From Candidatus Bathyarchaeota archaeon (lineage in GTDB: Archaea > Thermoproteota > Bathyarchaeia > Bathyarchaeales > Bathycorpusculaceae), in the NCBI GenBank assembly GCA_963780185.1, contig CAWABA010000004.1, forward strand, positions 32,001-96,000: a stretch of 64,000 bases of DNA, read 5' to 3'. Below the pieces are notes generated by a model. The model was not told the DNA's origin. It did no database searches and saw only the letters and a list, made by a program, of their open reading frames with translations. Made by a program: the position numbers and the translations under genes. Below, one piece after another: positions 23,159 through 46,748 of this stretch; position 1 is the first letter of the stretch; each line of letters starts with the position of its first letter.

Positions 23159-23236
23159 TGGTGGGGCTGCCCGGATTTGAACCGGAGTCTATAGAGCCCA
23201 AGTCTACAAGCCTAGACCAAGCTAGCCGACAGCCCC
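23159..23236 (-). tRNA. tRNA-Pro(UGG), CCA encoded, no intron
   Basis: GGGGCTG acceptor stem; anticodon arm GTAGA-CTTGGGC-TCTAT; T-arm TCCGG-TTCAAAT-CCGGG; ends ACCA. Confidence 0.95.
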
Positions 23237-23955: not shown

Positions 23956-24116
23956 CCTTTTTTCGTTCGCTCTCCCATCCGCTCCATGTTTCGTTTCTTT
24001 ATGTCTCGTTCATTTCTTTCCATAAAATTCGCCAACAAAATTAGCCTTGGCTAAAGTTTAAACATGTGTGACTGTCACGGCACGGCAACAAGCCACCAAA
24101 AACAGGCAACCACGCA

Positions 24117-24399
24117 TCAGGCAGACAGAACGGTGAGCGCTTCTTTAATTTGGGCTTGGCACAGCTTACATTTCTTCATGAACTCGTCAGTTGCCAAGGG
24201 ACCGCAAACGTCGCACACGATTCTGCGAGCAGTCGTCGTAGGTGAAGCAGCAGACTGGGTAGCGGTCAGACTCTTTAAAGGCGCCTTTGATTATGGCTAA
24301 CTGCGCCGCGACGCTGCCCGAAGCCTCTTGGTCAGGCACATAATCCATGACTGAAAGCTCATTTAGGACATAGTCTAAACGTTTTTTTATACTTGTCAC
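24117..24399 (-). CDS. Small Cys-rich protein, frameshifted near 24220
   Basis: Adding one A after cag-aa continues IVCDVCGPLATDEFMKKCKLCQAQIKEALTVLSA-stop, giving CC-x4-C-x5-CxxC-x11-CxxC. Confidence 0.6.
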
Positions 24400-24508
24400 T
24401 TACTTCCCCTCTCGCCTCTCTGAACAAATCAGCAATGCCAACTAGAAGTATAAGAAATTAACCATTAAACAGACTGAAAATTCAGGCGCACAAGCCAAAA
24501 TCTGGGGG

Positions 24509-25459: not shown

Positions 25460-25589
25460 AACTGTTTTATCTACTTAATTGAATTCCCCTGGGGGTTCAT
25501 GAGGTTTTCGTTTGCGGCAGAAAAAGAGTGGTTTTTGGCTTGGGTTTTTAAGGCGGAGCAGCCTAAATGGTTGCAGGGTGCCTTTCGGC

Positions 25590-26030
25590 TTGGAGCCAAA
25601 CGAGGAGCTTAACGCGTCGACTTTCCAAACTTACATGTATCTTGTTAAAGTCGGCAAACCCGTTGGACCCCGAGACGTCATGCGTGGAGCCAACCTAAGC
25701 AGCCCCAGCGTCGCGTACGGAACCTGCAGAAACTCGTGGACTTCGGCTTAGTCGTCAAGGACGAGTACAGTAACTATGCGGCTAAAGAAAAAATGAACAA
25801 GAAAGGCTACCTGTGGGTTGGGAAAACCCTGATGCCGAGCTTCGTGATTTTCGGCTTCGTTTTCGTTGGGCATGTTGATCGCTGAAATCGCCGTTTTGAT
25901 TCCCCACTTGATTTTAGGCTCCTCGATAGAAGAGGCGTTTTGGCTTTGGATAATAACAACCGTCGCCGCCGCCCTGCTATTCCTGGTGACTGCCGTTCGG
26001 TTCAGGATGAAGAGTAAGACCCAGCCGTAA
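25590..26030 (+). pseudogene. HTH regulator with two C-terminal transmembrane helices, interrupted by two indels (pseudogene or assembly error)
   Basis: GPRDVMRGANLSSPSVAY continues in a shifted frame as RNLQKLVDFGLVVKDEYSNY; second shift near 25865. Confidence 0.7.
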
Positions 26031-26101
26031 ACGTAAAGATGGCTGACAGAGATTTTTCGGGTTTAAAAAACAAAAAAATAAAATAGAGTTAGATGTTTGG
26101 T

Positions 26102-27748
26102 TTATTCTTCGCCGCCGGGCATTCCGCCGCCTGGGCCGCCTGCTCCGCCTTTGGGAGATTTGGCTGTTATGACGTCGTCGATGCGTAGGATCATGGCTGC
26201 TGATTCTGCTGCTGATTTGATGGCTTGTTCTTTGACTACGATTGGTTCGATGACTCCGTTTGCGATGCTGTCTTGCAGTTTGCCTGTGAAGACGTTGATG
26301 CCGAAGTTTTTGCCGTCTGCTGCGTCGTGTTTTTGGCGTAGTTCAACGAGGATGTCTATGGGTTCTAACCCTGCGTTTTCCGCCAGCGTTCTCGGGATGA
26401 CTTCTACCGCGTCTGCGAATGCTTCCACGGCGAGCTGTTCTCTTCCGCCGACTTTCGTCGCGTATTTGCGTAGTTCCTTGGCGATTTCGATTTCTACTGC
26501 GCCGCCGCCTGGAACGATCTTGTTGTTTTCGATAACGTCTGAAACCACGGAGAGTGAGTCAACCATGGCGCTTTCAGCTTCGTCTACGAGGCGTTCTAAG
26601 CCTGCGCGTATGAGTATGGCTACGCTGTGTGGGTCTTTGCATTTTTCGACGAAGAGCATTTTGTCGTCGCCGATTTTGCGTTCAGTAACTGAGCCTGCGA
26701 ATCCAAGGTCTGCTGCTTTGAGGTCGTCGAGGTCACTGATGATGCGTGCGCCTGTTGCCCGCGAAAGCTTCTCCATGTCGCTTTCTTTGACGCGCCTTGC
26801 CGCCATAATGCCGACTTTGCTGAGGAAATGCTGAACCATGTCGTCGATGCCTTTCTGGCAGAAAACCACGTCTGCGCCTGAAGCTTTGACTTTGGTAACC
26901 ATCTTCTGCATCATGTCGCTTTCCTGGTCAAGGAACGCTTTCATCTGAGACGGGTCTTTTATGCGGATTTCCGCGCTGATTTCGGTTTTTTCGATTTCCA
27001 GCGCTGCGTCCAAAAGCAGGATTTTCGCGTTTTCTTTGGCTTTTGGCATGCCTGGGTTAACGACTTCTTTGTCGATGATTATGCCTTGGATAAGCTGGGT
27101 TTCGAGGAGGCTCTTCCCTGTTTTCTTGACGAGTTGGATGTTGTCGATGTCCGCGATGGTTTTGTCTCCGCGTTTCTCAGCAATCTGCATGACGGCTGCT
27201 ATGCTTATTTCGGCTAGGTGTTCACGTGCGCTGCCTACTGCTTTGCTGCTCATGCTGGTTAAGGAGATTTGGAGTAGTGTGGCTTTGTTGTTGACGTCAA
27301 GTGGGGTGGCTAGTTTGTTTATGATTTCTATGGCTTTTTGCCCTGCTTTTCGGTATCCGCTGACCAGGATTGTTGGGTGGATGTTTTGGTCGAGGAGTTC
27401 TTCGGCTTTTTTGAGGAGTTCGCTTGCGAGAACGACTGCGGTTGTTGTTCCGTCGCCGACCATGTCGTCTTGGGTTTTTGCGATTTCAACCATCATTTTG
27501 GCTGCTGGGTGTTCGACGTCGATTTCTTTGAGGATTGCGGCGCCGTCGTTTGTTATTGTTATGTCGCCTAGGCCGTCGATGAGCATTTTGTCCATGCCTC
27601 TGGGTCCTAGGGTTGTTTTGAGTACTTCGCCGATGACGCGTGCCGCCATGATGTTGTTTCGTTGGGCTTCTTTGCCCCTGCTTCTGGTTGTTCCTTCTTT
27701 AAGAATCAAGACTGGCTGTCCTGAATTTGTAGTTGTTAAATACGCCAT
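26102..27748 (-). CDS. ths: Thermosome (group II chaperonin) subunit
   Basis: [44 protein letters not shown] tail. Confidence 0.98.
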
Positions 27749-28256
27749 ATGTTACACCATCTTAATAGAACATGTTTTTATTATATCGGAAATAAGCAAA
27801 AAGTCTGCGGAAATATAAACTTTTAGCTTCGGAAACTGTAGGTTTCTGATTTTTTCTGGTTGGTTTTGGTTTTTTTCGGGTTTGGTTTTTCTGAAATAAT
27901 TTTTAAGTTGAGACTTTTGTTTTGGTGAAAGTTGAGACTTTCCGCCTTGGGTCTTTGTGTTTTGGGTTGCTTTTTTGGTTTTGGGCTTGGCTTTTGCTTG
28001 AGCATTGCCACATTTGGGATGGGCGGATTGCGACTTTGTATGTTGAGGCTATGTTGAAGTTATTGTCGCGTATGGGCGCTGCGACTTTCTCGGCGGTGGT
28101 TCAGGTTTGCTTAAGTGTTGGTTTTCCAATGTGGGAAGCTTGGAGGCTTTTGGGGTTGCGGCTTTTGGGATGGGTGCTGGTTGAAGAGTCAATGGGCAGG
28201 TTTTGATGCTGGGTTGTTTTTACAAAAAAAGATGACTGTGAGAATGTTTTTCTGTG

Positions 28257-28574
28257 TTATTGCGGCTGCTTTGGATTCCTGTAAGTCCGCACAACGTAGA
28301 AGCCGATGATCCAGACGCCCAGAAGCACGAGCAGCGTTGCCCAGAACAGGTCCCATGGAATGTCAGGGACAACAATGCACAGACCAGCCACAATGACGAT
28401 GGCGCCTGCTATCAGTGCCCCGAAGCCGGAGCGGCCGTGTTCGTGGTCGTGATGCCTGTGCCGCCTGAATTGGTCTGGGGTTGACGCCGCCTGTAGTTGT
28501 GCGCCGCATTTTTTGCAGTACGCTGAGTCCTCAGAATTCATCATTCCACATTTCGAGCAGTAAACCGACGACAA
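28257..28574 (-). CDS. Zinc-ribbon domain membrane protein
   Basis: YCSKCG..N...S.YCKKCG, His-rich linker, two transmembrane helices. Confidence 0.8.
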   Translation of the reverse strand: MSSVYCSKCGMMNSEDSAYCKKCGAQLQAASTPDQFRRHRHHDHEHGRSGFGALIAGAIVIVAGLCIVVPDIPWDLFWATLLVLLGVWIIGFYVVRTYRNPKQPQ

Positions 28575-28715
28575 TTTCCTTACACCTACTGAGCCTGTCT
28601 TTCAATTTTTTGATTGCTTGGGAAACTTGGGTTTCGTTTTTTCTCGCATCTTTTTGCATGCAAATTCCATCCATCCAGTCGACCTTTGTTTTTGGGGAAT
28701 TAGAAAAAGGGAAGG

Positions 28716-29831
28716 TTAGTCTTCTCTCCATTTGAAGAGTTTAACTGCCAGCGTGAAGACGACCCCTGTCATGACGGCTATGACTGCTAAGTCGATTATT
28801 GCTCCCATCGTGTTGCTGTAGACCATGACGTTGTTTAAGCCTTCGACGACGTAGAACAGCGGCAGCGCGTGCGCGAAGTTTTTCAGGTAGGTTGGCATGA
28901 GACTGATGGGGAAGAATGTGCCAGAGAGGAACATCATTGGGTAGGTAACTATGTTGCCGATTATGGCTGCTGTTTCGGGGGTTTTGGTGACTGTACCTAC
29001 GAGCATGCCTAAAGAGGCGAATAGCGTTGGTCCAATGAGCAGAAACGGTATGATTCCCACGGTTAGGTTAATGTTGGCGCCGAACACGTAGGTTCCGACT
29101 GCAACCATCAGCAGAAAACTTGCAAGTGTTACGAGCAGGTACAGCATGATTTTTGAGGTGAGCCACTCCATCTTTGTTAGCGGTGTAAGTGATAGTTGCT
29201 TGAAGAGTTTTGTTCTCTTGTACTCTGAGGAGATGTTAACCAGCGAGAACATTGGGCTGACCAGTATTGTGAAGCCTACAAGTCCTGGGATTAGGAAATC
29301 GACGTATTTTGTTTGGTGGATGTTAACGGTTGCTGCTGTAATGCCGATGACTGTTGTGCCGTTGAAGCGTTGCAGATTAAAGTAGTTGGTGTAGCCGTTG
29401 ACTGTGCTACTTACGATGCCACTGGTGCTCGACGTTGGGTTCCCGTAAACTGTTATGTTTATTGGGTTGCCTTGTAAGTAGTTGGAACTGAAGTTCGCTG
29501 GGATTATGATGCCATCTGAGGTTGAATGCGCTGATAGGTATTGTGAAAAGTTTTCTGATGGGTCAACTGTGATAACTCTGACTGTGCTGGAAGTGTTTAG
29601 GGCGTTGAGGAATTGGGCGGCTATGTTTGTTTGAGGTGTCACGAAGGGGCTTGTGTCTTGGTTTTGGGTATAAACGTTGATTGTCCCTGAACTGTTTCCT
29701 GAGAAGATAGTACCGAATATGAGGATTAGGATTATTGGGAAAACAAGAGCGAAGAAAAGTCCCAGTCTGTTTCTTAGGTAGCTGCGTCGGAAAACTTTGA
29801 AGTCTGATATTATTCTTTTTATGCTTGACGT
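28716..29831 (-). CDS. ABC-2 type exporter permease; probable start is ACG at 29831
   Basis: The frame is open 63 codons upstream of the listed GTG and encodes TM1 (RNRLGLFFALVFPIILILIFG); later YVDFLIPG and PMMFLSGTFFP. Confidence 0.9.
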   Translation of the reverse strand, partial: TSSIKRIISDFKVFRRSYLRNRLGLFFALVFPIILILIFGTIFSGNSSGTINVYTQNQDTSPFVTPQTNIAAQFLNALNTSSTVRVITVDPSENFSQYLSAHSTSDGIIIPANFSSNYLQGNPINITVYGNPTSSTSGIVSSTVNGYTNYFNLQRFNGTTVIGITAATVNIHQTKYVDFLIPGLVGFTILVSPMFSLVNISSEYKRTKLFKQLSLTPLTKMEWLTSKIMLYLLVTLASFLLMVAVGTYVFGANINLTVGIIPFLLIGPTLFASLGMLVGTVTKTPETAAIIGNIVTYPMMFLSGTFFPISLMPTYLKNFAHALPLFYVVEGLNNVMVYSNTMGAIIDLAVIAVMTGVVFTLAVKLFKWRED

Positions 29832-29833
29832 GT

Positions 29834-30796
29834 TTAGGGTCTCCTGTGGTTGGTTTTAACTTGGATGTATTGAGTAACTTCACCTTGCTCGTTGACTGCT
29901 CCGCTGACAAGTTTGACGAAAACGTCTTCGAGGCTGTCTTGCCGTGTCTGGATTGCACCCCAATCCATGTCTGACTGCTCAGCCGCCGCCAAAGCTGCAA
30001 GCGCATCAATCCTTTTTCGCAGGGACACGCAGACTTCGCTTCGGGTTGGGTCGTAGTCAACCTGTAACTCAGTGTTGGCTTTGATGTACTCTGCCAGTGC
30101 TGGACCGCCGTGGATTTGCAGGCGCTCACCTGAACCGTTCTCGGCAATGATTTCCTCTGTAGTTCCCAAAGCAACGATGTGCCCGTGGTTCATGATTGCA
30201 ACTCGGTCGGATAGCTGCTGTGCCTCGTCAAGGTAATGCGTGGTGAGGATGATTGTTTTGCCCTTGGCTTTCAAACCGCGGATAACGTCCCAGATGGCTC
30301 TTCTTGCGTTGGGGTCTAAGCCCGTTGTGGGTTCGTCGAGAAACAGCAGTTCCGGCTGGTTCACCAACGCCAACGCCAGACCTGTCTTCTGTTTCTGTCC
30401 ACCTGAGAGATTCTCAAAGTTTACGCCTGCTTTGTCCTCAAGGAGCACGTCGCGCAGTATGCTGTCAGGGTCTACTTTGACGTCGAATAGGTCAGCGTAG
30501 TAGACGATTGCTTCCCGAGGTGTCGCTTTCTCGATGAAACTGAACTCCTGCGGGATAACGCCTATTCTCTTGTGCAGTTCGTAGCCGTTTTTCCACGGGT
30601 CTAAGCCGAGAACTTTGGCGTCGCCGCCACTTCTTTCCCGCAGACCCTCAAGGATTTCTATGGTGGTGGATTTGCCTGCGCCGTTTGGCCCCAGTAAACC
30701 GAAGACTTCGCCCTGCTTAACCGTGAAGGATATGCCGTCGACCGCTTTCAAGTCGCCGTAACGCTTCTCAAGAGAGGAAACCTCTATCGGATTCAA
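29834..30796 (-). CDS. ABC exporter ATP-binding subunit
   Basis: GPNGAGKST, LSGGQKQ, LFLDEPTTGLD, TTHYLDEA. Confidence 0.95.
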   Translation of the reverse strand: MNPIEVSSLEKRYGDLKAVDGISFTVKQGEVFGLLGPNGAGKSTTIEILEGLRERSGGDAKVLGLDPWKNGYELHKRIGVIPQEFSFIEKATPREAIVYYADLFDVKVDPDSILRDVLLEDKAGVNFENLSGGQKQKTGLALALVNQPELLFLDEPTTGLDPNARRAIWDVIRGLKAKGKTIILTTHYLDEAQQLSDRVAIMNHGHIVALGTTEEIIAENGSGERLQIHGGPALAEYIKANTELQVDYDPTRSEVCVSLRKRIDALAALAAAEQSDMDWGAIQTRQDSLEDVFVKLVSGAVNEQGEVTQYIQVKTNHRRP

Positions 30797-30954
30797 TTAT
30801 TTCGCCTCCCAATGCAGTACGCGCCAGCTGTTGTTGTGGCTGCACCATTCCTGCCATGTGAACTCATGGAGGCACCGTCTAGAGCGGTTGAGGCGGCACC
30901 AGTTGTTCCACGAGTGTTTATGTGCGTTTTCTGTGATTGTTTTTGCGGATTCAT
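30793..30954 (-). CDS. Putative 53-aa peptide translationally coupled to the ABC ATPase
   Basis: ATG 30954 to TGA overlapping the TTG start of the ATPase (TTGA). Confidence 0.4.
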   Translation of the reverse strand: MNPQKQSQKTHINTRGTTGAASTALDGASMSSHGRNGAATTTAGAYCIGRRNN

Positions 30955-31006
30955 GCTTTTATCCCGAAAACAAAAATGGCAAAGTTTGATTAAAAGCTGG
31001 ACACTT

Positions 31007-31039
31007 GTTCATTTTATGAACCTGTTCACTTTGTGAACA
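31007..31039. promoter_or_regulatory. Tandem palindromic operator GTTCA-N5-TGAAC x2 in the divergent promoter
   Basis: GTTCATTTTATGAAC (31007-31021) and TGTTCACTTTGTGAACA (31023-31039). Confidence 0.7.
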
Positions 31040-31084
31040 AGCATTAACGTTAAAAACAAACGAGTTAAGATAGTATCTGCCAGC

Positions 31085-31747
31085 ATGGAAGTGGACACTA
31101 TTACGCAAGAAAACGATTTGGAGCCTGAAGGGCGAGACCCAAAACAGATTGCTCTCGCCGCATTTCGTTTCAGGGCTAGGCGAGGCATAGGCGTATTCTA
31201 CACCTCAGTCGCCCTCCCGCCGCTGCTTGCAAGCATAATGACTGCCTTACACACACCAGGCTACCTGACGTTAACTGGCATAGTGGTCTGCTTGATTATA
31301 GTTTGGATGGTTGCCCGAGCGGCTGGAATGAAAGGCTTTTACCACATGACCCACGTTATCGACTTATACAATGGTAAATTGGAAAATAAGAAAAGAGGAT
31401 TTCTCCACATGCTAAGAGGGCTACTTATTTTTGTTTTGCCCTTCGCAGTTTTCACGGTACTGAACATTTACGGTCTTAACTACTTAGCAGCTACAACAAT
31501 TTTCTGCTGGGTCGTCGTATGGGTCTTCTACCACATCTTTGTCACTTCACGGGCCTCAAAAGATGCTATTCTGCAGAGCCACATCGAAGATTGGCTTGCC
31601 TCGCCTTTGGCAATGCTCATTCTCATACTCGCGTCGCTCCCCGGTGTACCAAGTATCACTTTTGCCTTCGCAACTCCTGTTCTAATAGCCGCTGGCATCA
31701 AATCAATGTATGAAGCGCCCCAGGAGCTAGTACGAAGCAATGAGTAA
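31085..31747 (+). CDS. Hypothetical polytopic membrane protein
   Basis: About six hydrophobic helices; coupled to the downstream regulator. Confidence 0.75.
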   Translation: MEVDTITQENDLEPEGRDPKQIALAAFRFRARRGIGVFYTSVALPPLLASIMTALHTPGYLTLTGIVVCLIIVWMVARAAGMKGFYHMTHVIDLYNGKLENKKRGFLHMLRGLLIFVLPFAVFTVLNIYGLNYLAATTIFCWVVVWVFYHIFVTSRASKDAILQSHIEDWLASPLAMLILILASLPGVPSITFAFATPVLIAAGIKSMYEAPQELVRSNE

Positions 31748-32084
31748 ACCACCCAGCGACCACGACCAAGCCCTCTCGCAGTTCACTTCAGCAGGCGCAC
31801 TGTCGAGCTCCGTGCGGGTAGGCATCATGCTTGCGCTTCTCGGCGTTGAACGCATTACCTTCACCAACCTGCTGCTTGCCGTCAACGTCAGCAAAAGCTC
31901 GCTGAACAAAAGCATCAAGATTCTGGCGGATGAAGGCTACGTGAAAGAACGCTTCGGCTTCAAAAACACAGGCGGCCCACGCACCTTCGTACAGATTACC
32001 GATAAAGGAAAAACCGCCATCCGCACGCATCTGGAAACCATGCGCCGCCTAACCACAAAGTACCTGCCCGAAAGCCAACCATGA
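31740..32084 (+). CDS. MarR/ArsR-type winged-helix regulator (HTH_34-like)
   Basis: VRVGIMLAL, F..L...V.VSKSSL, L..EGYV, PRTFVQITDKGK. Confidence 0.85.
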   Translation: MSKPPSDHDQALSQFTSAGALSSSVRVGIMLALLGVERITFTNLLLAVNVSKSSLNKSIKILADEGYVKERFGFKNTGGPRTFVQITDKGKTAIRTHLETMRRLTTKYLPESQP

Positions 32085-32113
32085 AGTTTCAAGCTGTTCA
32101 GGCGTTTGATGCT

Positions 32114-32500
32114 TTAGATCCAGGCTGTTTCTATTTCTTTGATTTGCTTGAAGTGTGGGTCGTCTGTAATGCAGACTGCCTTGAGCATAAGTGCTGTGGC
32201 GGCGATTATGCTGCCACCCATGGACAAACGGTATTTGTGTCTTAACTCTGCGGAAATTTGGGCAATCTGCTCGTCAACAAGAACCACCTCAAATTCCCCC
32301 AGAATACCGGCAATTTGAGTTTTTACCGTTTCTCGGCTTCTCCTTGAAAGTGCAAAGTTATAGAATTCGTGGATTACAACAGCTGATATGTATCTACCTT
32401 TTCGGATATTTTGTGACCGCATTTTGTTTAGCAGCGACTTGTTTTCCGAGTAGTAATAGTCTACGAAGAACCTAGTGTCAAAGACTGCTTTGTTCGTCAT
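32114..32500 (-). CDS. vapC: VapC PIN-domain toxin
   Basis: VFDTRFF, VIHE, IIAATA, ITDDPHF; the usual Asp in LSMxDS reads Gly (LSMGGS). Confidence 0.85.
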   Translation of the reverse strand: MTNKAVFDTRFFVDYYYSENKSLLNKMRSQNIRKGRYISAVVIHEFYNFALSRRSRETVKTQIAGILGEFEVVLVDEQIAQISAELRHKYRLSMGGSIIAATALMLKAVCITDDPHFKQIKEIETAWI

Positions 32501-32828
32501 CTGGGTCTACTTCATGTCTCATTTTGTCAAGTTCTGCTTTCACTTCTTCGACTGTGGCCTGACCTGCGTAAGCTCCAGCCATATCCCAGAAGGTCTTCTT
32601 CCTCTTCAAAAGGACACCATCTCCTGTGTCGATTACCTCGAGCTTCGTGCCCTCTTCAATTTGGTATTTTCTGCGAAGCTTGACAGGAATCGTTGTCTGT
32701 CCTTTTTTTGTTACAACGACCACGACTTCCTTGACTTTGCTTCTTTTTGGAAAACTGATTTCCTCAAGCCTTATTTCCGATTCTTCCGTCAATGGGCTTT
32801 CTGCTGCTTTTGGCTCTAACTTTTCCAA
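32478..32828 (-). CDS. AbrB/MazE-family antitoxin (true start may be downstream)
   Basis: VTKKGQTTIPVKLRRKYQIEEG. Confidence 0.85.
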   Translation of the reverse strand: MEKLEPKAAESPLTEESEIRLEEISFPKRSKVKEVVVVVTKKGQTTIPVKLRRKYQIEEGTKLEVIDTGDGVLLKRKKTFWDMAGAYAGQATVEEVKAELDKMRHEVDPDDEQSSL

Positions 32829-32952
32829 CTTTTTTCGCCGTATTACTTTTAGTTTGTATTACCTTTAAGCGTTGCGGAATAACTTGCAAATTGCCGCCTG
32901 GGGGTGCGAAGGCTTTTTAGCGCAAACCACCCAATAACACACGTGAACCCAA

Positions 32953-33489
32953 ATGAGCCTACTTGACGCATCCGACTTCATCATCCAAAAGAAAATCCTC
33001 AGCGCTTACGAACACTACGATTTTTTGGACCTGCAAGGAAACAAACTGGCGGAAGCCGACGGCAGCCTCATCCAAATCCCACCCAAATTCGAAGTCAAAG
33101 ATACCCACCAAATTGAACTCCTCCACATGCAAGGCAAAACCCTCAGCCTCCACCACGAATTCACCCTCTATGGCACAACTGGGGAAGAGTTGGGAACCAT
33201 AAAAAAGAAAATCGCAACCTTTGGGCACCAAGAATACTGGATCGAAAAAAACGGGCAAGAATTCATGCGCATCTACGGCGACTTCACCTGCCACGAATAC
33301 CAAATGGAAACAGCCGGGCAATCCGTCGCCGCCGTACATAGGAAATGGGTTTCGCTGCGAGACCAAATGGGAGTCTCCATAACAGGCAACGTAGACCACC
33401 GAATAATCATAGGCGCAGTAATCGTAATAGAACATGTTGAAGCCACAGAACAACACTCTTCTTCGGGCACAGTCAACGTTAGATTTTGA
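32953..33489 (+). CDS. LURP-one-related/scramblase (Tubby C2) family protein
   Basis: IQKKILS, LGTIKKKI, GDF..HEY, V.RKWVSLRD. Confidence 0.85.
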   Translation: MSLLDASDFIIQKKILSAYEHYDFLDLQGNKLAEADGSLIQIPPKFEVKDTHQIELLHMQGKTLSLHHEFTLYGTTGEELGTIKKKIATFGHQEYWIEKNGQEFMRIYGDFTCHEYQMETAGQSVAAVHRKWVSLRDQMGVSITGNVDHRIIIGAVIVIEHVEATEQHSSSGTVNVRF

Positions 33490-33544
33490 AGCCATTGAAA
33501 ATATCAGCAGAATTAAATGATAAAACAACAAGAAGTAAAACCCT

Positions 33545-33728
33545 ATGGAAGAAATGACCTACCTAAACAAGGCAACAACCAAAAACGAATCCCTAAGAAC
33601 AACCATTCCAAGAAGCATAGTACAACAATTCGGCTTAACAGAATATGATATGCTTGAATGGATTCTAAAAGCGGAAGGTGGAGAACTGAGTTATTAGTGT
33701 GAAGCCTAGAAAAGGGGAAGTCAGGTAA
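33545..33728 (+). CDS. Small AbrB-like DNA-binding protein, frameshifted near 33689
   Basis: MEEMTYLNKATTKNESLRTTIPRSIVQQFGLTEYDMLEW; removing one base continues VISVKPRKGEVR-stop. Confidence 0.65.
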
Positions 33729-33730
33729 AA

Positions 33731-34366
33731 TTGACGAAGGCTATCTACCCACTAAATTTTGAGTGCCAAAAAAATGAAGCTGTATTCTATAATCATTTAC
33801 TTTATCCATCCTCCCTAAATAGGGCACGAATTGATGTACTTCAACGAATGGCACATTACTTTGAGCATTTAGACAAGAATGATGATAGGCTCCTCGTTTT
33901 AACGGCAGAATTATTGTTAGAAAATGCAATCGACAGATATTTGTCCGAATTAATGCCTTCTTATAAAAAGAATCTGAACGATAAGAAAGAATTTACTTTT
34001 TCCCTAAAGATTGCGGTAGCAAAATCACTCAAATTGTCACCACCACAGTTTTTTAACAGCGCAGATTTGATACGGAGAATAAGAAACCAATTTGTTCATC
34101 AGTTGGAAATCACAAAGTTTGAAATGCTTAACTCTAAGATACAGAAAGAAATAAGCGACAATTTGCTACTTTATATTCCGAAAGAGAAACTTGCTGAAAA
34201 AACATTGCAAGAACGTTTCAGGTCTCTTTCTTTGTATACTTTTTACGGCATGAACCGTCAAATTGAAAACGTGCATTCTCTTAATGTTTTCATAAGAGAT
34301 GATGGATTTCTGAGCAACTTGACAAAATTTTTTGCTCAAAAAGGAATATGTACCCCCACTAAGTGA
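33731..34366 (+). CDS. MtlR-like HEPN-domain protein
   Basis: DDR..VL....LLE, FTFSLKI..A, IRRIRNQFVH (R-x4-H); AT-rich. Confidence 0.65.
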   Translation: MTKAIYPLNFECQKNEAVFYNHLLYPSSLNRARIDVLQRMAHYFEHLDKNDDRLLVLTAELLLENAIDRYLSELMPSYKKNLNDKKEFTFSLKIAVAKSLKLSPPQFFNSADLIRRIRNQFVHQLEITKFEMLNSKIQKEISDNLLLYIPKEKLAEKTLQERFRSLSLYTFYGMNRQIENVHSLNVFIRDDGFLSNLTKFFAQKGICTPTK

Positions 34367-34480
34367 CGAAATGGCTAAAATTGGCATCCCTTGAAAGTTT
34401 ACGTGGAGAGCTATCCCTTAGAGACTTTACAGAACCCAAAATAGCAACCATTAAAAGTTAGAGTTGCAAAAATAAGCGGT

Positions 34481-34812
34481 TTATTTTTTGCGTATGTTGC
34501 ATTGGAGTACTTTGGGGCAGATTAGGCATTCGTCTTGTGTTAGCATGCTTTCTCCTGGCATGTGGAGTAGGCTGCTGTAGTGGGCGCATTTGGCGGTGAG
34601 TCGAAGACGGTTGGGTATTCGGTGGGTTTGACTTCGATGACTCGGTTTTTTTCGGTGATGAGGTTGAGTTTGCTCATGCAGTAGGGGCAGGCGAAGTGGG
34701 TTTGTCGTGGGATGGTGTTGGTGTCGGTTATGACGGTCGGCTTGTCAAATACTTTTTCGCATCCTTTGTAAGGGCATTTGAGTTTTTGCTCGTGCCCATG
34801 GAAAAGCTGCAC
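34481..34812 (-). CDS. Multi-zinc-finger small protein, frameshifted near 34594
   Basis: CPYKGC..F, CPYC; the shifted frame continues AKCAHY...DECLICPKVLQCNIRKK-stop. Confidence 0.7.
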
Positions 34813-35091
34813 GTCATTCGCCTCCCATGTTTATTTAACATCGAGTGTAGCAATATTTAATAAACTTTATCGACTAACGCTTCCTCCGTCTAATTGCACA
34901 ACAGAAATACACAAACGCCAAACCCCATAGCGACAAATGCAAAGCCTTTTAGACAATAACCAATCAATACCACATCACAGCCCGTTGAAATTATGCTATT
35001 TATGCAACATTTCACAACAATTATGAACAAATCTCAACCACCCTTATATCGCCTAACGACCCATCAATATCAAAAAAGAACGGTGAAAAAA

Positions 35092-35154
35092 ATGGAAAAA
35101 CCATCCCCAAAAAAAGCAGCCCCAAAAGAAGTCCTGTACTTCCCGCATGTATAG
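35092..35154 (+). CDS. Putative 20-aa micro-ORF MEKPSPKKAAPKEVLYFPHV
   Basis: TATA-like CTTATAT at 35043-35049 and GGTGA SD. Confidence 0.4.
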   Translation: MEKPSPKKAAPKEVLYFPHV

Positions 35155-35164
35155 GTGACATGAA

Positions 35165-35314
35165 ATGTTTGCGGAGACAAGTATGCCCATATTTGTGCTG
35201 TGCACAAGCTCGCTGACGGCAGCCTTCGTGTACTATAATCTGAAATACCGAAAGTTCCTCAAAGAAAACCCAAGCTTAACCAACCCATCCACAGAGCAAA
35301 ACAGAAGGAGGTGA
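35165..35314 (+). CDS. Putative 49-aa single-pass membrane peptide
   Basis: AGGTGA SD overlapping the previous stop; hydrophobic stretch then a basic tail. Confidence 0.45.
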   Translation: MFAETSMPIFVLCTSSLTAAFVYYNLKYRKFLKENPSLTNPSTEQNRRR

Positions 35315-35430
35315 ACCAGAAGACAAAACGAAAAAATGCAAACACATCAACAAGCCAATTCCGCGCCCACCCGCCCAACAGGAATTTGGCTTCCCCTTTT
35401 TCTTTTTTTTAACGTCAAAGTTTTTATCCT

Positions 35431-36021
35431 CTATGCGAGGACTTTATGGCAAGTGATATTCTTGGTTGAAATTTTGACGGGTAAGATGGTTTCAATAGTA
35501 ACGAAGACCATGTTTCCAATGGTGGATAAGGTGGTTTCTGAATTTGCGAGCTGATAGAAATCTGAAAAACGACTTGGAAGCTCTAAAAAGATGTTTTCCT
35601 CGGTTTTCTTGATGGGTACAACCTCTTTTGAAAGTGATGTGCCATTCCACTCCGCTATTTCCCGATCAGCAACCCCGACGGTTGACCTTGAAAGCGCATA
35701 AACAAATGCTTTTTCGCCCCAAAGGTCAAAGTTTACCATCTCGCGAGGTATCTCAACCTGATTAATCGGTCGTTTCTGGAAGTCCTTTGGGTAAACTGTC
35801 TTGACGAGCACACCTTTTTTCAAATTATGTTTTATTGAGGCTTTGTTTTCGGCTAATAGGCGGTTTACGCTTCCATCTATTTTGCCGTTTGTGCACTGAA
35901 GGTTTTCAGCGATTTCTGAAATTGTTATGCCGTGCTTCTTCATGATTTGCTGCAGGACGGCTGCGTCGGTTGATTGCCCTTTTTTGTGCATTACGACGGG
36001 TGCTCCTGAAAGACGGCTCAT
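35431..36021 (-). CDS. HTH-domain protein
   Basis: GITISEIAENLQCTNGKIDGSVNRL helix-turn-helix; C-terminal domain not recognised. Confidence 0.7.
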   Translation of the reverse strand: MSRLSGAPVVMHKKGQSTDAAVLQQIMKKHGITISEIAENLQCTNGKIDGSVNRLLAENKASIKHNLKKGVLVKTVYPKDFQKRPINQVEIPREMVNFDLWGEKAFVYALSRSTVGVADREIAEWNGTSLSKEVVPIKKTEENIFLELPSRFSDFYQLANSETTLSTIGNMVFVTIETILPVKISTKNITCHKVLA

Positions 36022-36125
36022 ATCATCACATTGCCTGTGGAATTGATGAGTGTTAGTTGCTAATAAGCGTTTAGAAGCTTCCAAACGACTATTAAATTAA
36101 CACAAAAAACCCATAAGTCTACGAC

Positions 36126-36374
36126 ATGACCAAGGCAGTGCTCATGAGCCCTACAGCCTACAGGTGGCTACAAAGACACCCATTCGTCTCAGAAGAAGCC
36201 ATAATAGGCATAATCCTAAACTGCCCGACAAGAGAGCGCAAGTACTTTGACGATGAGAGATTCCAAATCACCTTCAAAAGAAGAAAAAACGGCAAATTCG
36301 TAAACATCACACTATGGATACATGAAAGACAGGACTCGTTTTACATAGGCAAAATGCATTCAGAAAAAGCGTAA
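36126..36374 (+). CDS. Small basic hypothetical protein (RelE/BrnT-like fold suspected)
   Basis: 82 aa; beta-rich C-terminus ending IGKMHS; divergent from the HTH gene. Confidence 0.55.
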   Translation: MTKAVLMSPTAYRWLQRHPFVSEEAIIGIILNCPTRERKYFDDERFQITFKRRKNGKFVNITLWIHERQDSFYIGKMHSEKA

Positions 36375-36415
36375 GGCAAACTGCCCTTTGAACCAACATT
36401 GTTGGGATTGGGGTG

Positions 36416-36431
36416 TGGAGCCTCGAGCGGG
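36416..36431 (-). repeat. tRNA-Thr 3'-end copy 3 (16 bp)
   Basis: TGGAGCCTCGAGCGGG identical to 38821-38836. Confidence 0.8.
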
Positions 36432-36548
36432 AATTAATCATTTGGGATGTAAAGCACTCTGGAGTTTTGCATATCCGAAGATTTCGTAGAAACCCCAATT
36501 TTATTATTTAGGCGCTGACATAACTGTGAATCAGGGGAAGATTACTGC

Positions 36549-37229
36549 ATGAAGGTTTTCGAAAGACCCGGTCCCGTAAACACTGATAGCGTCATAGATA
36601 TTGCAAGTGAGGCTGCATCCAGAGCTGATTTTGTCGTTGTGGCGTCGGTTACGGGCAGCAGCGCCGTGAAAGTAGCTGAGAAAATACGGGACAAACCCGT
36701 CGTCTGTGTTACCTGTCCTCAAGGCATGTTCTGGCAAGTTAACGAGATGAAAGACGACCTCTTCGCCAGAATCCCTGAACTGAGAAGCCGACGCGACGAC
36801 TGGGTCAACAAAGGCTTAGAAAAGGTTCCCATGTTTGTAACGGAGGAAAACAAAGCCAAGCTGGACAGTTTAGGCGTCAAGATTGTTCGAGGAACCATCC
36901 CCCTGTTTGGTCCAAGCTTCTCCATGAGAACCCACCTCAAAAAAACAACTTCACTGGATGTAATCGCGAAGACGTTGGAGTTGATTTCCACCGGAACGCT
37001 GGTTTGCATGGAAACCGTTCTGATGGCAACCGACGCAGGCGTCATTCCTGAAGAGAAACGGGTTCTTGCCTGTGCAGGAACAGAAATGGGTTTAGACACC
37101 GCGTGGATTCTGAGAAACAGCGCGTCGGCGAACCTGTTTCATCCCGAGAGAGGCTTCAGGTTCGTGGAGCTGCTGGCAAAGCCCGGGGTTGCACTTACTC
37201 CCAAAGTAGACATTAAATACCTAAGATGA
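36549..37229 (+). CDS. Pyruvate kinase C-terminal alpha/beta domain protein (COG1751-like)
   Basis: FERPGPVNT, VVVASVTGSSA, VC.E..LMATDAG.I, AGT..GLDTA. Confidence 0.85.
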   Translation: MKVFERPGPVNTDSVIDIASEAASRADFVVVASVTGSSAVKVAEKIRDKPVVCVTCPQGMFWQVNEMKDDLFARIPELRSRRDDWVNKGLEKVPMFVTEENKAKLDSLGVKIVRGTIPLFGPSFSMRTHLKKTTSLDVIAKTLELISTGTLVCMETVLMATDAGVIPEEKRVLACAGTEMGLDTAWILRNSASANLFHPERGFRFVELLAKPGVALTPKVDIKYLR

Positions 37230-37275
37230 ACCGCATAATCCGAAGAGCATTTTTGGGTAAGGCTTAGCCTTGCAA

Positions 37276-37297
37276 AGGTGGAGCCTCGAGCGGGCTT
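37276..37297 (-). repeat. tRNA-Thr 3'-end copy 2 (22 bp)
   Basis: AGGTGGAGCCTCGAGCGGGCTT identical to 38818-38839. Confidence 0.9.
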
Positions 37298-37485
37298 TTG
37301 TTTTTATCAGGCACCGGGAGTTAAGGTACCTGTTCGCAGGAAGGGAAGCGGGAGCTATTAGTACACCGTTTAAAGGAAGAAGAAGTTGAAGGACAAGGAA
37401 TCAGCTCATCCGTCTTCTTTTGACAAAATTCACTTCAAGACTTCAACTCAGAAATTGCCTTTTGCCAACTGCTAAAACGACAGTT

Positions 37486-38037
37486 TTACTTGTGATTTGA
37501 AGGCGGCTTCTCGTTTAATTCACGGTATCTTTCCATCGCGTAAGTTACGATTTCAGCTGCTTCACACGCATTCTTCCATGCACGTACTTTCACCCATTTG
37601 TGAGGTTCAAGCCGCTTGTATGTCTCGAAAAACTCTTGAATTTCAACTAGCCGATGCTTATGAACATCGGTAATATCCTTGTAGCCTTCGAAGCGGGCAT
37701 CATTGACAAGCACTGACAGAATCTTTGCGTCAAGCCCTTCTTCATCTTCGATTATTAACGCCCCTATAACGCGGACTTTAACGATACAGCTTGTCGTCAA
37801 AGGAGCATAGCTAAGCACCATTATATCCAATGGGTCTTCGTCATCAAACCATGTTTGAGGAACAAAACCGTATTCTACAGGGAAAACAACCGATGAAGGA
37901 ATAATCCTATCTAAAACGAAACCTTCCCACTTTAAACTGTACTCATACTTATCTCGAGAACCGCTTGAGACTTCAATAACCATATTTAGTTGTTGAGGCG
38001 GGTTATCTCCGGCAGGGATGTCTTTCCAGAAGTTCAT
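37486..38037 (-). CDS. ppa: Inorganic pyrophosphatase, family I
   Basis: KYEY, YGFVPQT..DDEDPLD, DEEGLDAK, FFETYK.LE. Confidence 0.95.
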   Translation of the reverse strand: MNFWKDIPAGDNPPQQLNMVIEVSSGSRDKYEYSLKWEGFVLDRIIPSSVVFPVEYGFVPQTWFDDEDPLDIMVLSYAPLTTSCIVKVRVIGALIIEDEEGLDAKILSVLVNDARFEGYKDITDVHKHRLVEIQEFFETYKRLEPHKWVKVRAWKNACEAAEIVTYAMERYRELNEKPPSNHK

Positions 38038-38105
38038 CTTTTATCAACTTTTACCAAACTCTAATCCAGCGATTTAAACATAACCAACATTAAAAATGGA
38101 AGTGT

Positions 38106-38147
38106 TGGAGGCTCGAGCGGGCTTCGATCCCGCGGCCTGCAGCTTAC
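38106..38147 (-). repeat. tRNA-Thr 3'-half copy 1 (42 bp, 3 mismatches; starts in the anticodon loop)
   Basis: tggaggctcgagcgggcttcgatcccgcggcctgcagcttac versus 38821-38862. Confidence 0.95.
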
Positions 38148-38203
38148 AGTAGCCTTATATCGATTTGTATACATATTAAACTAATCGTTTACAGGTGTGT
38201 ACT

Positions 38204-38428
38204 ATGGAAACAGAGGTCCTGTCTGTCAGAGTTAAGAAAAGCCTCAAAAAAGAAGCAGAAAGGATGGGTATTGATATAAAAGCTGCTGTAGAAGAGCGTC
38301 TCGAGGAACTTGTGGAGGAAAAGAAAGCGAAAGCCAAAAGACGCGCGGAGGAGCTTCGTCGCGCTATGGGAAACGTTACTGTGGAGGAGTGGGTAAAAGA
38401 CGTCAAAGAGACAAGGCAAGAGATGTAA
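38204..38428 (+). CDS. vapB: VapB-type antitoxin (ribbon-helix-helix-like)
   Basis: TEVLSVRVKKSLKKEAERMGIDIK; EEWVKDVKETR. Confidence 0.85.
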   Translation: METEVLSVRVKKSLKKEAERMGIDIKAAVEERLEELVEEKKAKAKRRAEELRRAMGNVTVEEWVKDVKETRQEM

Positions 38429-38801
38429 ATACCTACTAGACGCATCCTCATTGTACCCCCTACTGCTTTCTGGAGAAGCCTTCGACTTTGAGCAATGTGC
38501 TGTAAGTACCCTGACGGAATATGAATTAGGCAACGTACTTTGGAAAGAAACTAGGAGAAAGAGAATCGACTTCAAGCAGGCATCGCAAACTTTTTCGGAT
38601 GCTCTGTCAGAGCTAAAGAAAATCGGCATCGGCAGTATAGACGATATTTTGGTATTAGCACTGGAGAGAAACCTTACCTTTTACGATGCCTCATATGCTT
38701 ACCTCGCTGAAAGGGAAGATATGAAACTAGTTACCGAAGATGTTGATTTGATTAAGAAATGTAAGTGTGCCATCCACACAAAAGAGATGGAGCCAACTTA
38801 G
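38400..38801 (+). CDS. vapC: VapC PIN-domain toxin; probable start is ACG at 38400
   Basis: KYLLDASSLYP lies upstream of the first TTG; YELGNVLWK, LTFYDASY, LVTED. Confidence 0.85.
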   Translation, partial: TSKRQGKRCKYLLDASSLYPLLLSGEAFDFEQCAVSTLTEYELGNVLWKETRRKRIDFKQASQTFSDALSELKKIGIGSIDDILVLALERNLTFYDASYAYLAEREDMKLVTEDVDLIKKCKCAIHTKEMEPT

Positions 38802-38820
38802 CTTGCTTGTTTGAATGAGG

Positions 38821-38897
38821 TGGAGCCTCGAGCGGGCTTCGGTCCCGCGGCCTGCTGCTTACGAGGCAGCCGCTCTACCAGGCTGAGCCATCGAGGC
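38821..38897 (-). tRNA. tRNA-Thr(CGU), CCA encoded, atypical T-loop ACCGAAG
   Basis: GCCTCGA/TCGAGGC acceptor stem, U73; anticodon arm GCTGC-CTCGTAA-GCAGC. Confidence 0.95.
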
Positions 38898-39006
38898 GCA
38901 CCGTTTATGTTTGCTAATCAGTGAAGCCCAAGTTTTTAAATGTTTTATCGCAGAGGTGCATGTTGAAAAGCGCCATTCCACATAGAAAAGTGCATGTGTC
39001 GAATGT

Positions 39007-39194
39007 ATGTTGAAGTATGTTGTTTCATATTTGGAGCCTATTTGGTGCATCTAGTTGACGGAGGGGGTAGATGTTGCATTCAAACATAAACGGGGTTCAG
39101 GCGCTGTTCTTTGTGTCTATTTGGCTCATCTAGATGTCCCTATTTGGATCCTATAGAAAACCGTAGGGAGGCTGGGTACGAAAAAATAAAAACC
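39007..39194 (+). repeat. ~190-bp non-coding repeat, copy 1 (inverted relative to 46559-46748)
   Basis: Near-identical flanks with a divergent ~15-nt centre; internal TATTTGG x4 and TATTTGGnnCATCTAG x2. Confidence 0.95.
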
Positions 39195-39312
39195 CGACGG
39201 GGAAGACACCGATTTACGTGACCAAAACTCAGCCCAAACACGGCTTAAGCGTCAATCTTAAAAGGTTTAACCAGCTTATCTTGATTTGTAGTTTTAATTC
39301 AGAGGCGATTAC

Positions 39313-40338
39313 GTGAGCAACGAAAAAGCAGGAAAAACTCCAGCCCGAGACGGCGCAGGTATCGGCGAACGAAGGATAATTGACATTATCGCCAGCCACC
39401 TTGAAGCCATGCCTAACCTGCCCGTGCCCTTCGGAGACGACGTGTCCGCCGTCAACATAGATGAAAAACAGGTTGCCGTGCTCAAAACGGACATGCTTGT
39501 AGGCAAAACCGACGTGCCCCCAAATATGAGCCTTTGGCAGGCCTCACGCAAAGCAGTTGTCATGAACATCAGCGACTTCGCTTCCAAAGGTGTGCAGCCA
39601 ACAGCCGCGCTTGTATCCCTGGGGTTACCTAAAGGCTTCATGCAAAAAGACATTGAAGAAATCGCGCGGGGACTAAACGCGGGTGCAAGAGAATATGGGG
39701 CATACATCGTCGGCGGAGACACGGGTGAAGCCTCAGACCTCATAATTTCAATCAGCCTCTACGGTACAGCAGAGAAAACGAGCCTGATACTGCGCAACGG
39801 AGCTAAGCCAGGAGACGTTTTGGCTGTCACAGGGTTCTTCGGCAAATCAGCCGCTGGACTACGGTTGCTGATGGATAACTGTTCAGCGTCTGCTCATCTT
39901 CGGGATGTTTTGCTTGGGGCGGTTTGCATGCCTAAGGCGCGGCTAAAAGAAGGATTAGCCCTTAGCCGTTCGGGTGCAGCGTCAGCTTCGATCGATTCAA
40001 GCGACGGCTTAGCTTGGAGCCTGCATGAAATCGCCAAAATGAGCAACGTCGGCTTTGTCGTTAACACCGTTCCCGTCTCCGACGAAGTTAGACGGTTCGC
40101 GGAATTCAACCATCTCAACCCCACGGAACTGGCACTTTACGGCGGCGAAGAATACGAACTAGTCGTAACCATCAAGCCAGACAAATGGGTCGAAGCGGAA
40201 GACGCAATTGAAGCCGTCGGCGGATGCCTCCTGCCCATTGGAAAAGCAACAAGGGACACGCAGATGCTCTTAGACGTTGACGGCACGAAGCGCCCTGTTG
40301 AAGCCCGCGGCTGGGAGCATTTCAAGAGCAAGATTTAG
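39313..40338 (+). CDS. thiL: Thiamine-monophosphate kinase
   Basis: FGDD, KTDMLV, NISDFASKG, VGGDT, IDSSDGL, GGEEYELV, GWEHF. Confidence 0.95.
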   Translation: MSNEKAGKTPARDGAGIGERRIIDIIASHLEAMPNLPVPFGDDVSAVNIDEKQVAVLKTDMLVGKTDVPPNMSLWQASRKAVVMNISDFASKGVQPTAALVSLGLPKGFMQKDIEEIARGLNAGAREYGAYIVGGDTGEASDLIISISLYGTAEKTSLILRNGAKPGDVLAVTGFFGKSAAGLRLLMDNCSASAHLRDVLLGAVCMPKARLKEGLALSRSGAASASIDSSDGLAWSLHEIAKMSNVGFVVNTVPVSDEVRRFAEFNHLNPTELALYGGEEYELVVTIKPDKWVEAEDAIEAVGGCLLPIGKATRDTQMLLDVDGTKRPVEARGWEHFKSKI

Positions 40339-46558: not shown

Positions 46559-46748
46559 GGTTTTTATTTTTTCGTACCCAGCCTCCCTACGGTTTTCTAG
46601 AGGATCCAAATAGGGACATCTAGATGAGCCAAATAGACACAAAAACCACCCGCAGGGCACCTCGTCTATGTTTGAATGCAACGTCTACCCCCTCCGTCAA
46701 CTAGATGCACCAAATATGCTCCAACTATGAAACAACATACTTCAACAT
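46559..46748 (-). repeat. ~190-bp non-coding repeat, copy 2 (inverted)
   Basis: Reverse complement aligns end-to-end with 39007-39194. Confidence 0.95.

Follow-up and report, generated by a model that had tools for sequence, protein, structure and literature searches.

Compact modules stacked between copies of the tRNA-Thr(CGU) 3' end in a bathyarchaeal genome and their probable exchange between related species

Capture of genes via elements integrated at transfer RNA (tRNA) genes was reportedly described for archaea by She et al. in 2001 under the title 'Gene capture in archaeal chromosomes'. Here, we describe a locus of an uncultured soil member of the Bathyarchaeia (genome G000), at which four compact modules are stacked behind the gene of tRNA-Thr(CGU), i.e., module A with a vapBC toxin-antitoxin pair, module B with the inorganic pyrophosphatase gene ppa, module C with a gene encoding a PK_C-like protein and module D with a wHTH (winged helix-turn-helix) gene and a small open reading frame (ORF). 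Coordinates refer to the window, i.e., the whole stretch of 64,000 nt of contig C4 that was analyzed, unless another contig is named, and G000 is a metagenome-assembled genome of 2.75 Mb in 13 contigs with a completeness of 93% and a contamination of 3%. In the available parts of two reports it is stated that archaeal tRNA-integrated elements get trapped and degenerate to few genes and that serial integration at one tRNA gene is possible (PMC3119797; PMC8371274). The gene capture of the Sulfolobales, as far as the available parts of the sources cover it, is similar to the locus described here in that integration took place at a tRNA gene and degeneration left a few genes and a trace. It is characterized by an SSV-type integrase (SSV: Sulfolobus spindle-shaped virus) that splits its own gene, with intN lying over the tRNA gene, by recognizable remnants of viruses or plasmids and by pseudogenes. 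At the G000 locus, in contrast, no integrase fragment is present, the four stacked modules are at most 1 kb in size and carry intact genes, and the modules are re-ordered in a related species.

Cis-mobilizable elements (CIMEs) were reportedly treated by Pavlovic et al. in 2004 in the work on ICESt1 and its CIMEs. At the ssrA gene of Dehalococcoides, tandem islands are each bounded by a 20-bp direct repeat of the 3' end with the insertion point in the T loop, and for 15 islands without an integration module it was proposed, in the available part of the paper, that these are CIMEs moved by accretion (PMC3146451). The G000 array resembles these islands, as they are described there, in having tandem units behind one small-RNA gene, 3'-end repeats and a point in the T loop. 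However, the Dehalococcoides islands are bacterial, are moved by a serine recombinase and range from kb to tens of kb with rdhA operons, whereas the G000 array is archaeal, a tyrosine recombinase is found in relatives, the modules have sizes of 0.7-0.95 kb and attachment site (att) copies of ~42 nt and of ~20 nt are mixed. The arrangement typical for CIMEs is found in G000, as the stretches that att copies enclose, modules A, B and C, contain only vapBC, ppa and the PK_C-like gene. Cryptic integrated elements of Thaumarchaeota have tRNA genes as main targets, form arrays by re-use of sites and carry VapBC as cargo, and the smallest element in the available part of the report has 2.6 kb and, besides its integrase, codes for a wHTH protein and contains two small ORFs (PMC6563490). 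All Thaumarchaeota elements described there carry their own integrase, and integrase-less units of sub-kb size are not described, supplementary tables aside (PMC6563490). The 2.6-kb element, as it is described, resembles module D plus an integrase.

Integrons consist of small single-gene units located between recombination sites, toxin-antitoxin units are common among these, and order and content of the units vary among relatives. The array in G000 is similar in that small units are arrayed whose order and content differ between relatives, and in an initial annotation of this DNA it was termed integron-like. This term could not be maintained, because neither an adjacent integrase nor an attI site is present, the repeats are tRNA ends and not attC sites and the genes lie in both orientations with their own upstream regions; furthermore, no IntI-type integrase was found in the window and the array adjoins a tRNA gene. 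The array is not an integron. Among the features of an element integrated by a tyrosine integrase, co-oriented tRNA 3' repeats and empty sites in relatives are present and the integrase gene is absent from the G000 array. In full-text searches of the literature, no account of stacked att-bounded modules of sub-kb size without integrase at archaeal tRNA genes was found, while the supplements of PMC6563490 and PMC7253208 may list some. The array belongs to this known kind and departs from it in that the units are smaller than 1 kb, that four of them are stacked, that two att lengths are mixed and that there is evidence for an exchange and re-ordering of integrase-less units between species.

The tRNA-Thr(CGU) gene (38821-38897, minus strand), identified by ARAGORN and Rfam (RF00005, 57.9 bits), encodes the CCA end and represents the intact integration target on the attL side. 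The initial annotation had described three co-oriented copies of its 3' end with lengths of 42, 22 and 16 nt, and these were confirmed in position and strand, all being located downstream of the tRNA gene and on the same strand. Copy 1 (38106-38147, minus strand) covers 42 nt from the anticodon loop to the CCA with 39/42 identical positions, i.e., 3 mismatches, copy 2 (37276-37297, minus strand) is identical in 22/22 positions from the T loop ('AAGC|CCGC') to the CCA plus 3 nt beyond, and copy 3 (36416-36431, minus strand) is identical in 16/16 positions, or 17 nt including the base before it. Copies 2 and 3 show 0 mismatches in 39 nt. The spacing from start to start along the array is 715, 827 and 863 bp, in agreement with the previously stated intervals of 0.7-0.9 kb that each hold one cargo unit (vapBC, ppa and the PK_C-like gene). 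The 16-mer of the tRNA end (at most 2 mismatches) occurs 4 times in the window compared to 0.08 expected, a number that was reached by 0 of 100 shuffles, and beyond the array its single other copy in the 2.75-Mb genome is the 3' end of tRNA-Thr(UGU); the motif is thus tRNA-specific and not a genome-wide repeat. The copies shrink with distance from the tRNA in G000, as had been noticed, but this is not a rule, since the copies in the relative L092 have 22 and then 53 nt in outward direction and those in G051 20 and then ~33 nt. Copy 3 is possibly the stump of a longer fragment, since the slot distal of module C in G051 holds the decayed ~33-nt copy and a broken peptidase gene, suggesting that the shortest copy of G000 may derive from a longer one.

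Position 55 of tRNAs is normally an invariant T and a C at this position is unusual. The T loop of tRNA-Thr(CGU) reads A54 C55 C56 in G000, L057, L085 and G051, and T55 is found in most relatives. Copy 1 carries the T at T-loop position 55 as do the tRNAs of relatives, while the tRNA of G000 has the C, which may have been brought in by the att copy of an element. The flanks following copies 3 and 1 (36375-36415 and 38038-38105) have a 10-nt motif in common, AATGTTGGTT, at ~15 nt from the CCA, which in the 36375-36415 flank makes up a short palindrome (plus strand, CCAACATTGTTGG); the motif may be the remnant of an arm-type site or may match by chance. Two further readings of the copies were rejected. 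A retroelement, with copies that match the 3' end of the mature tRNA in the manner of a primer-binding site, does not agree with copies 2 and 3, which run 3 nt and 1 nt past the CCA into the genomic flank. tRNA-like minihelices acting as processing signals were dismissed since the 5' acceptor strand is missing from these two copies.

Module A (38148-38820, plus strand) encompasses a vapB-like gene (38195-38428) and a PIN/vapC gene (38451-38801), for which Pfam reports PIN (1.1e-6) and CcdA-like (8.3e-5) matches and NCBIfam a VapB match below the cut-off. Module B (37298-38105, minus strand) contains the family-I inorganic pyrophosphatase gene ppa (37486-38037; PF00719, E 2.7e-49), and module C (36432-37275, plus strand) the PK_C-like gene (36549-37229), which matches Pfam PK_C with 27.6 bits and thereby just under the 28-bit cut-off. 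The genes of modules B and C each have a conserved upstream region of ~60 nt. Module D (35464-36415, mixed strands) comprises the wHTH gene (35431-36084, minus strand) and an 82-aa ORF (36126-36374, plus strand). For the PK_C-like, the wHTH and the 82-aa proteins, PADLOC and NCBIfam yielded no firm names, and the Rfam scan of 35300-39400 found the tRNA only.

Relatives were compared in two sets, the first one containing 20 stretches from 19 genomes of the same genus, with a Zn-ribbon gene detected in 16 genomes, and the second one 43 loci including closer relatives, 34 of them with tRNA-Thr(CGU). On the 5' side of the tRNA, the AIR-synthase-related gene (39313-40338, plus strand; Pfam AIRS and AIRS_C) is the conserved neighbor and was used as the anchor for the comparison; tRNA-Thr(CGU) adjoins the AIR-synthase-like gene in 19 relatives' loci. 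On the 3' side, the Zn-ribbon-like gene 'p90' (34540-34812, minus strand) is the ancestral neighbor as judged by tblastn in the 16 relatives' loci. The gap between the Zn-ribbon gene and the tRNA measures 105-112 bp in 6/16 relatives (G002, G010, G012, G021, G022 and G023), 346-2453 bp in the other 10/16 and 4008 bp in G000; G004, G015 and G017, in which the Zn-ribbon gene has no match within the fetched stretch, are outside this count. A terminator-like hairpin with a T run (35352-35410, without strand), read from the window, L057, L061, L085 and L093, constitutes the old flank, and in the close relatives L057, L061 and L085 it is found 12-150 bp from the tRNA end, showing that ~3.4 kb (35464-38820) are inserted in G000 compared to the empty site. 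The 3' end of tRNA-Thr(CGU) is an insertion hot spot in the genus. A comparison of the downstream region across relatives had been suggested with the initial annotation, and it revealed that gene order is not invariant and that empty sites exist. Additional co-oriented tRNA-end copies were found in 1/19 relatives' loci of the first set, plus a decayed copy in G005, and in 3/43 loci of the second set (34 with the tRNA), where the one of L072 is a near full-length tRNA-like copy.

In G000, the order outward from the tRNA is module A, the 42-nt copy, module B, the 22-nt copy, module C, the 16-nt copy, module D and the old flank. Module A is found alone at the tRNA in L063 and L071/G004, and in L093 together with ~50 nt of the far end of module D, showing that D was lost there by deletion. 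In G019/L079, module D is alone at the tRNA, followed by a 13-nt tRNA-end copy. L092 shows, in outward direction, a 260-bp unit, a 22-nt copy, module A, a 53-nt copy and module D, so that A is located next to the tRNA in L093, L063 and L071/G004 and one slot away in L092. In G051, the tRNA is followed by module D, a 20-nt copy, module C together with an M29 peptidase gene that is divided into two ORFs, the decayed ~33-nt copy, a HEPN-nucleotidyltransferase pair and the old flank; the same pair also adjoins the tRNA in G016. When metagenomes were scanned with an alignment of three D protein sequences, five loci were obtained, 5/5 with module D beside tRNA-Thr(CGU) and none with an integrase. 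Module B was found at this site only in G000, and the PK_C-like gene, for which strong matches were found in 8/40 relatives, was found at this site only in G000 and G051. Elsewhere in relatives, 11 vapBC copies and two PK_C-like loci showed neither a tRNA nor a fragment of tRNA-Thr or tRNA-Lys, with one tRNA fragment match in this set, a tRNA-Cys-like one in L115, and the D-like gene pairs of G045 and G111 are not located at a tRNA.

According to the initial annotation, the newest unit would be the one next to the tRNA. The distribution makes this assumption doubtful, since the proximal vapBC module is common to at least four relatives with identities near or below those of the flanks and has the most diverged repeat, whereas ppa and the PK_C-like gene are rare at this site and have perfect repeats. 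A comparison of the four-fold sites of A and its flanks in G000 with those of L093, L063 and L125, aimed at the relative age of A, yielded small counts, and L093 has frame breaks. Insertion into an att copy within the array, or a change in the order of the modules, has to be considered.

The AIR-synthase-like gene of the close relative G051 is 86% identical to that of G000 on the nucleotide level. Module D is 94.5% and module C 91.6% identical in nucleotides, while the flanking segments are 79-90% identical, and the PK_C-like proteins, located in the same tRNA array, are 92% identical. At four-fold sites, the three genes of modules C and D are identical in 184/212 positions (86.8%), compared to 421/652 positions (64.6%) for six flanking core genes (Fisher exact p = 1.7e-10). 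Moreover, the outward order is reversed, i.e., D then C in G051 and C then D in G000. The excess of identity and the reversed order indicate that integrase-less modules were exchanged, or were obtained from a common source, after the split of G000 and G051 and came to lie in different slots, and this is the strongest support for mobility on the level of modules.

Signs of erosion were found as well. The C module of G051 keeps the split M29 peptidase gene, in place of which G000 has a 56-nt linker and the 16-nt copy. The distal tRNA-end copy of module D, which is kept in G019 and G051, is lost in G000, where the C-terminus of the wHTH protein is altered and its last codons are fused to the old flank; this junction of D and the old flank is also present in L093. 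On contig C7 of G000, a match to the integrase family PF00589 beside a tRNA-Leu gene is broken by one TGA stop. This interrupted match adjoins tRNA-Leu(UAG), a neighbor of the tRNA-Thr(GGU) locus.

Family-I ppa is present as a single copy in G000, which also encodes a membrane H+-PPase. A protein match was found in 21/40 relatives of the genus and none in 19, several of which are >95% complete, and the ppa flanks are non-syntenic among three relatives. In 14 relatives' ppa loci, the homology is confined to 37486-38096, stopping within 10 nt of copy 1; none of these loci contains a tRNA-Thr fragment and 3/14 have an unrelated tRNA within 4 kb. The patchy and non-syntenic distribution indicates that ppa is an accessory gene in the genus and that the G000 copy arrived with its own upstream region. 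The view that ppa represents metabolic cargo is thereby supported, the search of G000 for a second ppa having returned this single copy.

The scan of G000 with PF00589 gave no match on contig C4 and three matches, all of them on contig C7, and tblastn with the integrase of relatives gave nothing on contig C4, which agrees with the initial observation that neither an integrase nor a fragment of one is visible at the array. In the relative G017, a 428-aa PF00589 integrase (9e-15) starts 8 nt past the end of tRNA-Thr(CGU) and reads away from it, followed by genes for TFIIB-like, ParB-like and type IV secretion system (T4SS)-pilin-like proteins, which suggests that the insert is an integrated plasmid or an element resembling integrative and conjugative elements (ICEs). 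On another contig of G017, a 56%-identical paralogue of the integrase lies beside a 17-nt tRNA-end copy, and two further copies, located on contigs C61 and C80, have a near-identical flank on the element side in common. L087, which belongs to another genus, contains an N-terminal stump of an integrase of the G017 family beside tRNA-Thr(CGU). The gene pool of the relatives therefore includes an autonomous cognate element whose integrase acts at the tRNA-Thr(CGU) att site, as judged from its position. Short copies of the tRNA end, i.e., copy 2 of G000, those of L092 and G019, three in G017 and that of G051, all start at the 'AAGC|CCGC' position of the T loop, and long copies, i.e., copy 1 of G000 and the 53-nt copy of L092, start in or beyond the anticodon loop. 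These two discrete start points, together with the location only downstream and on the same strand, argue for a pattern given by the crossover sites of integrases. A 'sublocation' idea for discrete att start points is cited in the available part of the Dehalococcoides paper (PMC3146451).

Comparable modules are found at other tRNA genes of G000. Using the 3' 45 nt of each tRNA as query and counting copies of at least 13 nt, 12/41 tRNA genes are followed within 3 kb, on the same strand, by a copy of their own 3' end; in the controls, 2 have such a copy upstream and 0 have one on the opposite strand, be it upstream or downstream, and ~8 of the 12 remain after matches to neighboring tRNA genes (His, Arg-UCU and two Gly) are dropped. 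The att-bounded units across G000 have 0.54-1.1 kb and mostly contain hicAB, vapBC or Fic: hicAB at Thr-GGU, vapBC at Lys-CUU, vapBC followed by a Zn-ribbon gene at Ala-UGC, Fic at Ser-GCU, a HicB-like gene with a 199-aa ORF at Leu-CAG and a membrane protein at Pro-GGG. At C7:2500-21000 (L101), the order behind tRNA-Thr(GGU) is a 544-bp hicAB unit, a 19-nt tRNA-end copy, a 14.7-kb element with the gene of a 403-aa tyrosine integrase and an upstream 316-aa ORF, and a closing 23-nt copy. At least 12 genomes of the genus retain the Fic unit together with the tRNA-Ser fragment, at 0 to ~10 kb from the intact tRNA, and for the tRNA-Lys vapBC unit an empty site exists in G051, where the flank homology resumes 18 nt past the distal copy. 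Matches to both halves or to long parts of tRNA genes that ARAGORN did not call are located at C1:14259-14314, C6:551278-551384, C6:165032-165081, C11:262957-263065 and C6:541003-541135; these may be tRNA genes that contain introns or are disrupted, or long att fragments, and they bear on the total of called tRNA genes, which is only 41 for the assembly.

We favor, with moderate confidence, the explanation that the array originated by tandem site-specific accretion and erosion, i.e., CIME-like gene capture, with occasional att-mediated reshuffling. The 3' end of tRNA-Thr(CGU) would serve as attachment site for elements with a tyrosine integrase, each integration would rebuild the tRNA and push the duplicated piece of the 3' end outward, and the three repeats would be scars of the attR type, left by one integration after another. 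Of the elements, the integrase genes and most of the backbone would have been lost and the four compact modules kept by selection. As they stay att-bounded, whole modules could disappear, pass from one species to another or change their order, probably via recombination of att with att whenever an element with a cognate integrase is present. As no cognate integrase was found in G000, the array is presumably frozen there. Integrases would have made every junction, and the small size of the modules may be due to erosion, to the insertion of units that were already small, or to both. Several points weigh against this explanation. No integrase and no integrase debris was found in or near the G000 array, the att cores lie 19-190 nt from the gene ends without pseudogene debris in the modules, and this compactness together with the perfect copies 2 and 3 fits poorly with a slow erosion of large elements. 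The distal repeat is unrecognizable or decayed in 10/16 relatives' inserts, scans of viral contigs with the G017 integrase and the D protein confirmed 0 relatives of either, and scans of viral and metagenome sequences found no parent element joining any of the modules A-D with an integrase. Furthermore, the linkers of 2-56 nt between module body (gene, ~60 nt upstream and 6-15 nt downstream) and att core are non-homologous between G000 and G051 despite an identity of 92-95% for the bodies. This is not what a simple recombination at the att cores predicts, since whole modules would then move together with their linkers.

The initial annotation had left the choice between capture of tiny cassettes in trans and heavily eroded tandem islands; the scars of att type at a hot spot were confirmed, and the choice itself has evidence on both sides. 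A true cassette system, in which sub-kb circles without integrase but with a tRNA-like att site are moved in trans by the integrase of an ICE-like element, appears rather unlikely to us, although the narrow size range argues in its favor: across seven tRNAs, ten modules bounded by att copies measure 0.54-1.1 kb, and each of them holds a single gene or toxin-antitoxin pair without debris. It would also account for the perfect copies 2 and 3, for module D, which has ~0.95 kb and lacks an integrase at this tRNA in G000, G019, G051, L092 and the five metagenome loci and which was apparently recently exchanged between the G000 and G051 lineages into a different slot, and for the 544-bp hicAB unit between tRNA-Thr(GGU) and the 14.7-kb integrase-encoding element. 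However, neither a free att-bearing mini-element nor a cognate integrase was found in G000 and the low-depth contigs contained no circular joints, the linkers next to att differ between G000 and G051, the decaying extra gene in the C module of G051 indicates that modules can shrink after capture, and the vapBC paralogues without tRNA fragments in relatives and the D-like pairs of G045 and G111 away from tRNA genes are found outside such arrangements. Hence, that the genus runs a tRNA-anchored cassette system, by which modules with toxin-antitoxin pairs and also ppa are excised, exchanged and re-inserted with borrowed integrases, is a tentative idea, to which we give well under an even chance. 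Considerably less probable is a hot spot that works without integrases, at which homologous recombination in the tRNA and core genes is combined with microhomology or illegitimate joining and the copies are by-products. The non-homologous linkers, junction distances that vary among G000, G019, L092 and G051, the many relatives' inserts without distal repeats and the neighboring 7.6-kb segment, inverted via inverted repeats of 190-240 bp as a sign of active homologous recombination, would be compatible with it; yet the repeats start at two recurrent tRNA positions, the anticodon loop and A58 of the T loop, in several genomes and at several tRNAs, integrases adjoin the same tRNA and an att copy in relatives, and 12 copies downstream on the same strand are opposed by 2 upstream and 0 on the opposite strand. 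An artefact, i.e., mis-assembly of the metagenome-assembled genome or chance repeats, is highly improbable even though the assembly has 13 contigs with the completeness and contamination given above and no independent contig bridges a repeat. Sequencing reads aligned to 34400-39400 (3 runs of one study) gave short low-depth contig pieces only, without joints and without a bridged repeat, but pieces of contigs from other runs agree with parts of modules A, C and D at every position (0 differences), 4 copies were observed compared to 0.08 expected, similar arrays at the same tRNA occur in the independent assemblies of G019, G051, L092 and G017, and repeats of 16-42 nt are too short for mis-joins on the scale of modules.

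The DNA neighboring the array is variable as well. Between tRNA-Thr and the AIR-synthase-like gene lies a repeat (38955-39206) of a type with ~190-250 bp, 78-93% identity and at least 7 copies in the genome, of which one is inverted and located 7.6 kb away at 46559-46748 and further ones are found at C6:84369, C6:266119, C12:39254, C10:29965 and C11:290769. The segment between the 38955-39206 and 46559-46748 repeats is inverted in G051, L061 and L085 compared to G000 and looks like an invertible segment driven by the repeat, and L093 has an inverted duplicate of the tRNA-side flank. In the Rfam scan of 35300-39400, no family matched 38955-39206. The distance from tRNA-Pro(UGG) to tRNA-Thr(CGU) is 0.6-3 kb in G022, G005, G008 and G014 and 15.6 kb in G000. 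The extra DNA there, at 23159-34540, is another variable stretch and carries an ATP-binding cassette (ABC) ATPase gene and a wHTH gene, followed in the list of contents by one more PIN/AbrB pair as well as a LURP-one-related gene. At 3 kb downstream of tRNA-Pro(UGG), 26 nt (20089-20114) are a copy of the 5' half of this tRNA.

If erosion explains everything, the locus is a clean and datable example of the known gene capture. Should a borrowed integrase prove to move the modules as units, the locus would represent a capture of cassettes outside the integron paradigm, and the natural site and its recombinase would be available for genetic tools in this lineage. A cassette system, if true, would mean that shuffleable arrays lie behind about a fifth of the tRNA genes, forming a functional analogue of the integron. 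In either case, an uncultured lineage provides here a compact and unusually shuffled example that is made clear by comparison among relatives, and the recent exchange and re-ordering of modules without integrase deserves follow-up. Bathyarchaeia are abundant uncultured archaea of sediments and soils whose gene exchange is little understood, and the locus offers a concrete route for it: the tails of tRNA genes would act as landing pads at which single useful or addictive genes pile up, outlast the vehicles that brought them and still cross between species.

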